A stretch of 64,000 nucleotides of DNA, from the NCBI GenBank assembly GCA_001244265.2, contig CDLV01000004.1, positions 1,798,001 through 1,862,000 on the forward strand, in the 5' to 3' direction. This DNA is from Microbotryum violaceum. Taxonomy: Eukaryota. Positions 14,074 through 41,957 of this stretch are shown piece after piece. The notes beneath the pieces were generated by a model, which had not been told where the DNA came from, ran no database searches, and worked only from the letters and a program-made list of their open reading frames with translations. Each line of letters starts with the position of its first letter. The first letter of the stretch is position 1. The position numbers and the translations under genes were made by a program.

Positions 14074-14297
14074 TGTAATACACTCCGTAGGAGTGTACAC
14101 CAGAGAGCAACGACGAGAGTATCACAGGACCAAAGTATGTGGAATTAACACTGGACACTCGTGTTAGTTGCTACAATGACTATGACTTCTGATCCACCAT
14201 AGGCTCACCTGGACACTCGTGTTAGTCGCTGAGGGGAGACTAAGATTGTCCAGGCGCGCGCTCCCTTCTCATAAGGCCCAGGCGCACGGGCCTTACA
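14074..14297 (-). mobile_element. Solo LTR, family E (subfamily E2); left inversion breakpoint
   Basis: TGTAAGGCCC...TATTACA on the minus strand. Its flanks (CCAAG and GGTAC on the element strand) do not match each other but match those of 41735-41957. Confidence 0.93.
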
Positions 14298-15825
14298 CTT
14301 GGCTGTGCGGCGCTTGTGGGTGTGGAGCCGCTTTCGGCGATCACTCAAGTCAAGAAGTACAAGATCCCCAACAGCCCAAGAGGGCTCATCCCGACACCTC
14401 TTGTTGGACTGTGCTGCCTGGCAAACCTTGGAAATGGCAAGCTGGTCCCAGGCATCTTCGCAGGCTTGGAATTGAAGGGCAAGCAACTCCTCAACCGACG
14501 GCAAGTTGTCATTGCCGTCGACACGGGCAAGTGGGGTGAGGGAGGGCATGTAGCCAAGCACAAGCTCAAAGGGGGTTTTCCCGGTAGCAACATTGAGAGA
14601 CAAGTTGATGGCATACTCACAGACAGCAAGGCACTCCGCCCAGTTGGATTGCTCCTTGTTGACGAGCGCTCAAAGAATCTGGAAGGCAGTCTTGTTCGTT
14701 TTCTCACTGCAACCGTCCGTCTCCGGGTGAAACACCAAAGAGAGCTGGCGCTTGTGTAGGGCAGTCCAGAACTTGCTTGTAAACAGCTTGTCCCGGTCCG
14801 AGACGATGCTTTGAGGGAGGCCCAAGAGGCGGTGCCATCCTTCATGGAAGCGCGCAGCAACCTCTGCTGCAGTGTCAGCTTCGCGTGCAGGGAGCAAACG
14901 GATGTACCCCAACAGGCGGTCAGTGATTGTTAACACACGGTCAAAGCCTTTGTTGGTGGGCAGCGGTCCGACAAAATTGATGGCAATGTCGGCCATGGGT
15001 TGTGCTGGGACAGGTAGCGAGTGGAGTTTGCCAGCAATGCGAGTGGTACGAGCCTTTGTCCGTTGACAAGAATCACATTGTTGGACGTAGTGCTTGACGT
15101 CCCGGGACATGTTTAGCCAGAAGTATGCCTACTGAACGGTCCGGTACGTTTTCATATCACCTAGGTGCCCCTGCGCATCATGAGCATCATGAAGGATGGA
15201 CTCACGGAGCGGGGCTAGTGATGGAATGATAAGCCGGCCCTGTAAATACAGCAATGCATCAACAATCTTGAAGTCCGATGTGACCGAGCCAATGTTAGTC
15301 ATGGCTTGCTGGCAGAATGGGTCGGTCTCGTACGCGTCAAGGATCTGCTGCTTGACAGCATCCAAAAGCTTGACATGGGAGACAGAGGCCATTAGGGTGG
15401 ACAGTGGATCAGTGAAGGAGTATCGACTCATCGACTCATTGCATTGGCTACAATGTTGTCCTTGCCAGGCAGGTATCGAAGGTCGCAATCAAATTTGGCC
15501 AGGGTGTCCAGCCAACGGGCTTGTCGGCAAGAGAGAACGGTGCGCTGGGTCTGGAAGTGCTCGATTGTGGAGTGATCAGTGAGGATGTGGAAGTGACCGC
15601 CAAGCAAGTTGATGCGCCATTCCTTGAGTGCTTTGACAATGGCAAGGAGTTCCTGCTTGTGAGTGGGGTAGTTGCGTTCAGTGGGTATGTATTGCCTGGA
15701 CCAGTACGCAATGGAGCAAGCCATCTTCCACTCCTGACCCTGGAGGAGGACACCACCAATTCCGTGATTGCTTGCATCAGTCATCACCCAGAACGGAGCG
15801 GTGTCGGCGGAGTGGTTGGGCGGCT

Positions 15826-18800
15826 TGTTGTGGGAAATTAGTGGGGTCTGCGGTCCAGAGGGACTTATGGTCTTAGCAGTAGCGCGGGCGCGCGGGTGTT
15901 GTGCGGGGGACCGGCAGAGGCGGCTGGTTGTTTACATGAGATTGCGTCTTTTTGGCCTAGCTGTTTTTCTCTCTTCTCCACCACGCACTCGATATCACAT
16001 CTCGCCTAGTCGCTCTGTTACAGTCGATTGACCTTTAGCGACCCACTATCTCACAATAGGTCATCTATCAACGTCACGTAACTAGAGACGCTCCTACAAT
16101 AACAGGTTATGAGTCCATCAGAGACCATTGCTCAGGAGTCTGGGGAGATCAAGATAGCCAAGCTCGGCAAGGATAATTACGAGCTGTGGTCGATTCGAGT
16201 CGAGGCGTACCTCGAGAGCAAGGGCTATGCGAGCGTCCTCGAGCATGGGCATGTGCGGCCCTCCGACGTCAGCCTGGCTGAGTGGAGGACCATGCACGGT
16301 CTGGATGCCTCGGTCACCGACACCCAAGTGGTCGTGAACTTGCAGAAGAAGGACAGAAGCGCCCGTGCCCTGATCATTCAATGTATCGACAATGCGAATC
16401 TCAAGATGGTCAAGAGCAAGACGCTCTCCGCCAAGGATATCTGGGATAAGCTTTGCCAGCATCATGAAGGGAATGCCAAGCCTTTCAAGATTCGAACGTT
16501 GTTGATGGAACTCTCGAATGCGAAGTACGACGAAGACGAGAATATGGGCGAGTTCTTGAAGAGCATGATCGACAAGGCGGATCAACTCGACGATCTCGGT
16601 CAGAAGTTTGGGGACGAGGCGATGATCGCATACATCCTCCAAGCATTACCCCCGTCGTACGAGATGCTGAAGCGAGCAATTCGCCTCGGTGAAAATCGAT
16701 CGGTCGACCATGTCATCAATCGCCTTACAGACGAGTACACGGAACGGAAGTTGTCGGGCAAGTTCGACAAACTCTTGAAGAACGCGGGAGCGTTAGCCGT
16801 TCAAAGCACGCAAGCAAGTCGTGACCCGAACTGTGTCTGTACGGGATGCAAGGGGAAGGGTCATTTCGCGATGGACCCTGAATGTCCCAAGTACGACGCC
16901 AAGAAGAACCACGGTCGTGCGCGCAACCGCAACAAAAAAAAGAAGCAGGACTCGAAGGAATCTGCGGATTCGAACGAGTTGGCTAAATTTGCGTTGACGG
17001 TCAAGTCTCTCGATGAGAGCCATTCGCTTCAAGACAATGTCGCGAATAGGGTGTCGCAGCTTAACCAGGGTGAGATCTGGACACTGGACACAGGTGCTAG
17101 CCAGCACTATGTTGGAGACGCCAGTCTGCTCTCCAATCGTCAAAGTGGAAACCTGAAGGTTCAGACAGCGAGCGGACAGGTAGTACACTGCGATACGTAT
17201 GGAATGGTACGTTTCAAGTTGAAGAGTGGGGCATCGCTCTCACTTGCGAACGTGTATCATCTCCCGGGTGCGCCCGTGAACCTCATCTCGACTCGAGCTC
17301 TATTCAATTCGGGAGCCAAGTGCGGATGGGAAGATGGCAAGGATGTCATGACGATCACCTATCAAGGAGTCATCTTGGCGAAGACGCTCAGTGGTACCGG
17401 TTATGCGCTCGACTTTACGCGCATTGTCGAGGATCAAGCTCATGTCGCAACCCGTGCGACAGTGGGAGCGCCTTTGATGGAGTGGCATCGTCGCTACGGG
17501 CATGTGCCCGTGAGCTCAATCATGGAGCTCGTCAAGTCAGGCGCTGTCAAGGGATTAGTTCTCACCGATGAGAAGGTCCACGACTGCGAGCCCTGCATCA
17601 GTTCCAAGTCTCGCGCATCGAAGTTCTCAGAGTTGGCTACTCAGGTCACCGACGTTCTTCAACGCGTATTCATGGACATCGGATTCGTCGCAGAAGATCA
17701 AGTTGATTTCCAAGGTCGAAAGGCATATCTGGCTATTGTAGACCAGTACTCGACTGCGAAGTGGACGTTCCCGTTGAAGACGAAGTCGGCTGAAGAAGTC
17801 ACTCGAGTATGGATCGCATTTCGACAAGGAGTTGAAAAAATGACTGGTCGGAAAATCAAGCGCGTGCGTACGGACAATGGTACCGAATTCACAAACAAGC
17901 TCATTGGCGCGGATTTCCAAAGTCAAGGTATCCTTCATGAGACCTCTGCACCATACAGCCCGCAACAGAATGGAACAGTAGAACGCTTCAATGGCTCGTT
18001 GATGGCGATCGTTTGTGCGGTCCTTGCTGTAAGGCCCGTGCGCCTGGGCCTTAGGAAGAGGGGACGCGCGCCTGGGCACTCTTAGTCTCTCTCCAGCGAC
18101 TGATACGAGTGTCCAGGTGAGCACAAGGTGGATCAGAAGGCATTGTCATACCAGCGACTGATACAAGTGTCCAGTGTCAATTCTACATACTTTGGTCCTG
18201 TGATCCTTGTCGTCGTCGCTCAGGTGTACACTCCAACGGGGTGTATTACACTGTTTTTTTCACACCGGTCAAAGACGCACACTGCCACGTGCGCCAGCGA
18301 CACACCCACGGAACGAACAAACGACAACGAACGGTAACAGACGAACATGGCGCGTGGCAAGAACTCCACCGCCCAACCAGCGCCACCATCGGCACCAGAG
18401 GAAAGGGAGGACAGCTCGGACGATGAACAGGAGGTTGCAACGATGCCAAGGGGCATGAAGCTCAGCGCGCCCAAGCTTGCGAACGAAACGAAGACGGCGA
18501 AAGCGGCTAAGAACGACACCCTCCATCAATTTGCGGAAAACTCAGAAGACGACATCTCAACGGACGAAGAAAACGAGTACGCCCCTCAGTTCATCTCCAC
18601 CATTCCCATCACTCTGCACAACAACACGAAGTCAAAGACGTTGCAGGCACTTGCTGACTCTGGGGCCTCTTCCTCCTTTATCGCAGATAAGGTGGTTGAG
18701 AAACTGGGGTTAGTCATGCATCGTCTCCCTGTTCCTACATTGGTCAAAACTGCAATCAAAGGCCAAGCACGCGCGTTTCATGTTACCTCGTTTGTAAAGA

Positions 18801-41587: not shown

Positions 41588-41734
41588 GGATGCTATAGCT
41601 GTGCTTCCCACACACGCGGGCTCACGGGTGGTACTCGCAACGCACATTCCCTTTTGGGCCTTCACTGTGTTGTCGACGTTTCCCCCAGAGGATGCTATAG
41701 CTGTGCTTCCCACACGCGAGCTCACGGGCGGTAC
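41588..41734 (+). repeat. ~102-bp tandem repeat; the second unit is cut by an LTR and continues, inverted, at ~14020-14073
   Basis: GGATGCTATAGCTGTGCTTCCCACAC occurs twice. GGTACTCGCAACGCAC..TTCCCTTTTGGGCCTTCACTG is found at ~41630-41670 and as reverse complement at ~14035-14073. Confidence 0.88.
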
Positions 41735-41957
41735 TGTAAGGCCCGTGCGCCTGGGCCTTATGAGAAGGGAGCGCGCGCCTGGACACTCTTAGTCTCCCCT
41801 CAGCGACTAACACGAGTGTCCAGGTGAGCCTATGGTGGATCAGAGTCATAGTCATTGTAGCGACTAACACAAGTGTCCAGTGTTAATTCCACATACTTTG
41901 GTCCTGTGATACTCTCGTCGTCGCTCTCTGGTGTACACTCCTACGGGGTGTATTACA
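41735..41957 (+). mobile_element. Solo LTR, family E (subfamily E2); right inversion breakpoint
   Basis: Nearly identical to 14074-14297. Flanks GGTAC (41730-41734) and CCAAG (41958-41962). Confidence 0.93.

Follow-up and report, generated by a model that had tools for sequence, protein, structure and literature searches.

How did two long terminal repeats (LTRs) of one retrotransposon subfamily come to lie in opposite orientations 27.4 kb apart, each bordered by two 5-bp sequences that do not match one another? This question is raised by a 64,000-nucleotide stretch of Microbotryum violaceum DNA (assembly GCA_001244265.2, contig CDLV01000004.1, positions 1,798,001 to 1,862,000 of the forward strand), which was analysed as a whole and is called the window below; all coordinates refer to it. 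Our results make it highly probable that the segment between these LTRs is a real inversion of about 27.4 kb, generated in Microbotryum when two oppositely oriented copies of E2, a chromovirus-type Ty3/Gypsy element, underwent intrachromosomal non-allelic homologous recombination. The two copies and the segment between them are as follows.

14074-14297, minus strand: E2 LTR at the left breakpoint (224 nt, TG..CA ends; plus-strand flanks GTACC at 14069-14073 and CTTGG at 14298-14302)
41735-41957, plus strand: E2 LTR at the right breakpoint (223 nt; flanks GGTAC at 41730-41734 and CCAAG at 41958-41962)
14298-41734: inverted segment (27,437 bp between the E2 LTRs), the crossover point lying somewhere inside the LTRs

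Both E2 LTRs start with TGTAA and end with TTACA. Gapped self-BLAST of the window aligned them as one 224-nt inverted match with 97.3% identity, and in a global alignment they were separated by five substitutions and one 1-nt indel. The repeat finder reported the same LTRs as two adjoining inverted-repeat pairs (I12 and I13) with 27,437 nt between the arms. Read in the orientation of the element, the left copy is organized as CCAAG-LTR-GGTAC and the right copy as GGTAC-LTR-CCAAG, i.e. a reciprocal exchange of flanks. Neither LTR thus displays a target site duplication (TSD) of its own; each half-site pairs with a half-site at the other copy, a geometry that is expected after a crossover between inverted repeats. 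On these coordinates and flanks our analysis agreed with the initial annotation of the locus. The probability that both reciprocal 5-mer matches arise by chance was 1.2e-6 when calculated analytically from the 5-mer content of the window, and both matches were obtained in 7 of 3,000,000 random pseudo-element pairs in a simulation.

Other insertions of the E family within the window served as internal controls.

18028-22337: E1, full-length Gypsy element of ~4.3 kb (LTRs 18028-18252 and 22115-22339; TSD CTTGC)
28983-29207: E3 solo LTR, inside the inverted segment (TSD ATACC)
49033-49255: E-family solo LTR (TSD GTTCC)

Perfect 5-bp TSDs were present in all three. The E2 LTRs are 80-86% identical to the four LTR copies that these insertions comprise (18028-18252, 22115-22339, 49033-49255 and 28983-29207) and 84-86% identical to the LTRs of the full-length element 18028-22337. 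The latter carries RVP, RVT_1, RNase H, integrase and Chromo domains in a pol of Gypsy order (Pfam), which places the E family among chromovirus-type Ty3/Gypsy elements and makes the E2 copies solo LTRs of a subfamily. Accordingly, typical LTR termini, homology to the family and target DNA on both sides were found for both E2 copies, and a TSD appeared at each of them once the flanks were re-paired. Among the five substitutions between the E2 LTRs, three are C/T or G/A changes at TCG/CGA sites; such changes would fit the target of the hypermutation reported for Microbotryum, which resembles repeat-induced point mutation.

The target site marked by CCAAG lies in another Ty3/Gypsy element, Gypsy C, whose parts are distributed between the inverted segment and the sequence right of the right breakpoint.

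14298-14669, minus strand: Gypsy C integrase fragment, ending ...RRTAK at the breakpoint (matches P0058 residues 612-735)
41960-42359, plus strand: Gypsy C integrase C-terminal fragment (matches P0058 from residue 735; SH3_Tf2-1 positions 19-63)
26674-26911, minus strand: Gypsy C 5' LTR (238 nt; TSD TCTGG, minus strand 26916-26912)
42376-42550, plus strand: Gypsy C 3' LTR (175 nt; TSD TCTGG at 42551-42555)
15826-24811, plus strand: Copia element nested in Gypsy C pol (LTRs 15826-16104 and 24533-24811, 99.3% identical)

P0058, to which the fragments were compared, is a pol protein from M. silenes-dioicae that is intact and belongs to the same family. As had been proposed, re-inverting 14298-41734 rejoins the integrase: the first fragment matches residues 612-735 of P0058 at 90% identity and the second residues 735-800 at 95%, the two meeting at residue 735, and when aligned to the integrase of E1, a paralog within the window itself, they end and begin at residue 409. 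The lysine common to both fragments is the codon duplicated with the TSD, and the reading frame is kept. A tblastn search of the window with P0058 followed the same path, running from 25531 to 24812, being interrupted by the nested Copia, resuming from 15826 to 14298 at the breakpoint and continuing from 41960 to 42359. This path is collinear only across the re-inverted junction and stops 16 nt short of the Gypsy C 3' LTR. Likewise, the Pfam profile SH3_Tf2-1 was recognised on the right fragment only, over profile positions 19-63, and its start at position 19 indicates that the domain was cut at the breakpoint. It is in the re-inverted order only that Gypsy C displays the organization of a Ty3/Gypsy element, i.e. 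an LTR pair with a TSD (TCTGG on the outer side of each LTR) around reverse transcriptase, RNase H and integrase (RVT_1, RT_RNaseH, Integrase_H2C2 and SH3_Tf2-1 domains). Relatives of Gypsy C were found in M. silenes-dioicae, M. intermedium and M. saponariae. Its 5' LTR is 63 nt longer than its 3' LTR, the extra length consisting of an internal duplication of a segment with CTGACACCAGAAGCTAG.

The other target site, marked by GTACC, lies in a ~100-bp repeat.

13991-14073, plus strand: part of the repeat left of the breakpoint, ending in GTACC
41580-41734, minus strand: part of the repeat that comes next in the re-inverted order, with an uninterrupted unit boundary (GTACC) at 41634-41630

The 60 nt up to and including position 14073 match a single further place in the window (minus strand, 41683 to 41630; 54 nt, 91%, E 3e-16), and the 60 nt read from 41734 on the minus strand likewise match a single further one, from 41634 to 41580 (E 1e-14). 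These two matches overlap by exactly GTACC, so that an uninterrupted neighbouring unit of the repeat joins both flanks and acts as a paralogous empty site. A local alignment of the two flanks scored 84, compared with a mean of 16 and a maximum of 27 for 1000 shuffles. The initial annotation had described the rejoined sequence as a 102-bp tandem repeat. The pairwise matches and the empty site uphold the rejoining, but the period is 100-102 bp, there are about 2.4 units and the first of them is diverged; the word tandem is considered further below.

Two further LTR pairs straddle the breakpoints, that of Gypsy C and that of TRIM B, a short element and candidate terminal-repeat retrotransposon in miniature (TRIM) with the following LTRs.

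27511-27710, plus strand in the element's own orientation: TRIM B 3' LTR (TSD CTTCG at 27711-27715)
42698-42898, minus strand in the element's own orientation: TRIM B 5' LTR (TSD CTTCG, the reverse complement of 42899-42903)

In both cases one LTR is situated inside the inverted segment and the other outside. The members of each pair are now inverted relative to each other and become direct, with matching 5-bp TSDs (TCTGG and CTTCG), upon re-inversion, in line with the initial annotation. That annotation also counted four swapped TSD pairs; the two E2 pairs are indeed exchanged, whereas those of Gypsy C and TRIM B are merely split into inverted orientation. Zero bases were lost or gained at each breakpoint, and when either junction is rejoined a single 5-bp copy of the TSD is left over. 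The window itself shows that the flanks are exchanged, that both target sites rejoin to the base and that the two further LTR pairs regain direct orientation. That recombination took place, when it did so and that the segment is correctly assembled are inferences.

One crossover between inverted copies accounts parsimoniously for the four restored TSD pairs and for both target sequences, with no base lost or gained. In the succession of events that we propose, TRIM B would have inserted first (TSD CTTCG), followed by Gypsy C, which would have entered TRIM B (TSD TCTGG). One E2 element would then have landed in the Gypsy C integrase, within its SH3-like C-terminal domain (TSD CCAAG), and a second one, 27.4 kb away and in the opposite orientation, in the ~100-bp repeat (TSD GTACC/GGTAC). 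Finally, a crossover between the E2 copies would have flipped everything between them and exchanged their inner flanks. Ectopic homologous recombination between inverted copies of one LTR family, the origin put forward initially, was backed by all internal tests that were run.

Could the same flanks have arisen otherwise, either by coincidence or because the inversion took place through aberrant transposition or integration? We find this hardly credible. According to the passages of PMC2775673 that deal with it, DNA transposons may also cause inversions through aberrant (hybrid-element) transposition, a recognised alternative whose products can look like exchanged TSDs. At the present locus, each E2 LTR is complete with both termini, which argues against a transposition-linked origin. 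LTR retrotransposons are not known to excise, and a solo LTR has no coding capacity; the hybrid-element model therefore has no known counterpart at the E2 copies. As for coincidence, its probability is already about 1e-6 for the 5-mers alone, and the residue-exact integrase junction and the empty-site paralog exclude it further.

The case for recombination can also be compared with that made for inversions 2j, 2q7 and 2z3 of Drosophila buzzatii, which were attributed to ectopic recombination between inverted copies of the transposon Galileo. In the corresponding passages of PMC2775673, the criteria are opposite orientation of the copies, exchanged TSDs, chimeric copies, a single uninterrupted target in the non-inverted chromosome and no deletion or duplication at the breakpoints. 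The E2 inversion displays copies in opposite orientation at both breakpoints, exchanged TSDs and neither deletion nor duplication. An uninterrupted target was seen in paralogous proxies only, P0058 reading through the integrase junction and the neighbouring repeat unit through GTACC.

Four points weigh against an inversion by recombination. First, chimerism requires parental copies for its recognition, and the window holds none. Second, of the six differences between the E2 LTRs, one falls in the first ~110 nt and five in the rest; this distribution does not depart significantly from an even one (binomial estimate, p about 0.11), and no crossover position can be read from it. When the six differences were polarised with the four related E1/E3-type LTRs, no mosaic pattern, crossover point or conversion tract was observed among them. 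Third, Tandem Repeats Finder missed the ~100-bp repeat in the window, and missed it again (minimum score 30) when the flanks that do not derive from transposable elements (TEs) were joined by script to imitate the empty site. The term tandem repeat is thus carried by pairwise matches only; it is correct in essence, although weaker than the initial annotation suggested. Fourth, the correctness of the assembly and the ancestral arrangement are judged indirectly, from the sequence of this one window.

This last point bears on an assembly artefact, in which the assembler would have misoriented 27.4 kb through the inverted repeat while the real chromosome is un-inverted and its solo LTRs have matched TSDs. 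A wrong path through an inverted repeat leaves identical, base-perfect exchanged flanks, and the evidence from flanks, integrase and ~100-bp repeat does not discriminate between the two situations. The repeat in question, however, is just 223 bp long and its copies differ at six positions; 223 bp are spanned by long reads or even by paired short reads. Moreover, other short repeats are resolved in the window although their copies match each other equally well or better (Copia LTRs, 279 nt, 99.3%; E1 LTRs, 225 nt, 98%). This reasoning is an argument rather than a test. An artefact thus appears unlikely, and a real inversion by recombination between the E2 copies is retained as the most probable explanation of the locus.

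If the inversion is real, over which length of homology did it take place? The initial annotation had specified only ~223 bp, which is possible but not established. Both E2 copies are solo now, and as far as the window sequence goes, solo LTR formation before the inversion (223 bp of homology) and a later collapse (several kb of homology) appear equally compatible with it. In the second case, a variant of the mechanism retained above rather than a competitor of it, the crossover would have involved full-length E2 elements, through their inner LTRs or internal regions. Each recombinant element would have been left with one flank from either target site, and both would later have been reduced to solo LTRs by LTR-LTR recombination within the element. 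By geometric reasoning, this route leads to the same end state (x-LTR-y and y-LTR-x, with no internal sequence) and demands the same number of events as the solo-first route, namely two insertions, two solo-LTR formations and one inversion. Recombination frequency is higher with longer homology. A related full-length element of ~4.3 kb (18028-22337) is present in the window, and solo LTRs are common in the E family, making up two of its three insertions with intact TSDs. Nothing in the window speaks against the full-length route but, equally, nothing favours it over two pre-existing solo LTRs; provided that the inversion is real, we give it somewhat less than an even chance.

What did the inversion carry along? 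All parts of the inverted segment that were identified are derived from TEs: the body of Gypsy C, the nested Copia and Gypsy E1, the 3' part of TRIM B, the E3 solo LTR and Helitron-like, miniature inverted-repeat transposable element (MITE)-like and long interspersed nuclear element (LINE) sequences. The identification is confined to these elements; recognisable transposon sequence makes up most of the inverted segment. No non-TE Pfam domain was found in the open reading frames (ORFs) tested, 46 of them at E<=0.001 and 21 at E<=0.1; the latter scan gave only three weak matches, all far under gathering scores. Judging from the predicted reading frames, the inversion would have affected no host gene, recognisably at least.

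The restored order nests coherently, with Gypsy C within TRIM B, both Copia and an E2 solo LTR within Gypsy C, and a full-length Gypsy E1 (18028-22337) within Copia (15826-24811). This Copia is contained entirely in the inverted segment and therefore gives no indication of whether it inserted before or after the inversion. The LTRs of E1 are 97.8% identical (5 differences/225) and those of the host Copia 99.3% (2/279), the reverse of what nesting order predicts, although the numbers are small. The TSD of Copia 15826-24811 is imperfect (CGGCT vs TGGCT).

TRIM B measures about 1.1 kb in total, with LTRs of 200-201 bp, an internal region of ~740 bp when Gypsy C is removed and the TSD CTTCG. A purine-rich run precedes its 3' LTR, and its ORF 27038-27775 had no Pfam match. 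Gypsy C is inserted into this copy in the opposite orientation. The LTRs of the two elements share approximately their first 10 nt and last 35 nt, the middle being unrelated, and both elements also have in common the 12 nt that directly follow the 5' LTR, CTTTTTTTTTGA. TRIM B resembles a non-autonomous element that moves by means of the Gypsy C machinery. A third copy, also part of this LTR comparison, occurs as a solo LTR.

7169-7369: TRIM B solo LTR (TSD CAATG)

The remainder of the inverted segment contains a LINE and several smaller features.

34262-40500, plus strand: LINE (non-LTR element; Exo_endo_phos and RVT_1 domains)

The 3' side of this LINE runs toward the ~100-bp repeat at 41580-41734, and the repeat might belong to the LINE tail. 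Just upstream of the LINE is a perfect (TTCATCT)17 microsatellite (32999-33119, with 100% matches over 121 nt). ORF 29552-30160 matched only multi-copy gene models of M. silenes-dioicae, three of the seven having a PIF1-helicase domain (PF05970), and probably represents a piece of a Helitron. A palindromic MITE- or foldback-like element of ~395 bp, with terminal inverted repeats of ~150 bp and possibly a TA TSD, occupies 31886-32280, and a 5'-truncated second copy of it was found 24 kb away at 7794-8058. The pair 7794-8058 / 31886-32150 was considered as a fifth LTR pair straddling the left breakpoint and rejected, being MITE-like and matching in direct orientation as well; as these copies match in both orientations, they are uninformative on the inversion.

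Outside the inverted segment, ORF 5077-7086 corresponds to a host gene of the NudC/CS-domain type and is 96% identical to MVLG_06612 of M. lychnidis-dioicae. The 29 differing residues, among 660 aligned, are dispersed. Given this divergence, the source of the window would be either a sister species or a haplotype that has diverged, for example that of the other mating-type chromosome. A literature search on the gene identifier MVLG_06612, made in order to place the window on a chromosome, found nothing. The gene is surrounded by two Copia-type elements (1171-3008 and 10784-13110) that are 75-77% identical, inverted and ~8 kb apart, the left one being apparently truncated.

Does the locus belong to a non-recombining or pericentromeric region, as the initial annotation suggested? 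This was not established, as the window shows only TE density and a Microbotryum origin. The complete scenario, in which the inversion would have occurred in a non-recombining (mating-type-linked) or pericentromeric region of Microbotryum and between two LTRs of 223 bp that were already solo, seems unlikely to us. If true, it would provide a base-pair-resolved example of how the extensive rearrangement of such chromosomes arises. A solo-first origin would further mean that LTR remnants near the lower homology limit suffice, in which case thousands of solo LTRs would constitute a standing substrate for repeated flip-flop inversions.

Within fungal mating-type chromosomes, inversions have been invoked both as proximate causes and as consequences of recombination suppression (relevant passages of PMC7898863). 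The passages on Microbotryum in PMC7898863 and PMC10502011 give no molecular origin for any inversion. In a non-exhaustive search of passages from both articles, which excluded supplements, no LTR-LTR inversion described at the base-pair level was found; the main text of PMC7898863 contains the word ectopic 0 times, and PMC10502011 the phrase ectopic recombination 0 times. The E2 locus keeps both reciprocal breakpoints and four independent insertion scars, so that no second genome is needed to retrace the event base by base, which makes it a useful worked example with a ready PCR or long-read assay. Its mechanism and the exchanged-TSD signature are textbook knowledge, to which this inversion adds a well-documented further example and no change. 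As no host gene was recognised in the flipped segment, the inversion is expected to be phenotypically silent. Its value would increase if the locus lies in a non-recombining region, or if relatives carry the two solo LTRs un-inverted.

How, then, does the E2 inversion compare with known systems? Mating-type chromosomes of Microbotryum are described as TE-rich and rearranged, with inversions in their evolutionary strata and TEs that can promote inversions (passages of PMC7898863 and PMC10502011). The window shares with them the genus and a TE-dense sequence but, unlike them, is known without a chromosome placement. With Galileo, as described in the passages cited above, the common features are TE copies in opposite orientation at the breakpoints, exchanged TSDs, perfect TSDs elsewhere in the family and clean breakpoints. 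The two systems differ in their substrates, 223-bp solo retrotransposon LTRs here and 1.5-kb foldback-like DNA transposons there. They also differ in scale, the present case affecting 27 kb within a TE nest whereas the Galileo inversions are cytologically visible, gene-carrying polymorphisms, and the non-inverted chromosome and the chimerism of the copies belong to the evidence on the latter only. Rearrangements mediated by Ty/delta (LTR) sequences are known in Saccharomyces, and inter-element LTR recombination has been detected in plants by mismatched TSDs. The E2 inversion likewise corresponds to non-allelic homologous recombination between dispersed LTRs, with mismatched TSDs as the diagnostic trait. 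Yet those cases are mostly deletions or translocations recognised by genome comparison, whereas here both reciprocal products of an inversion occur in one window and are reconciled base for base.

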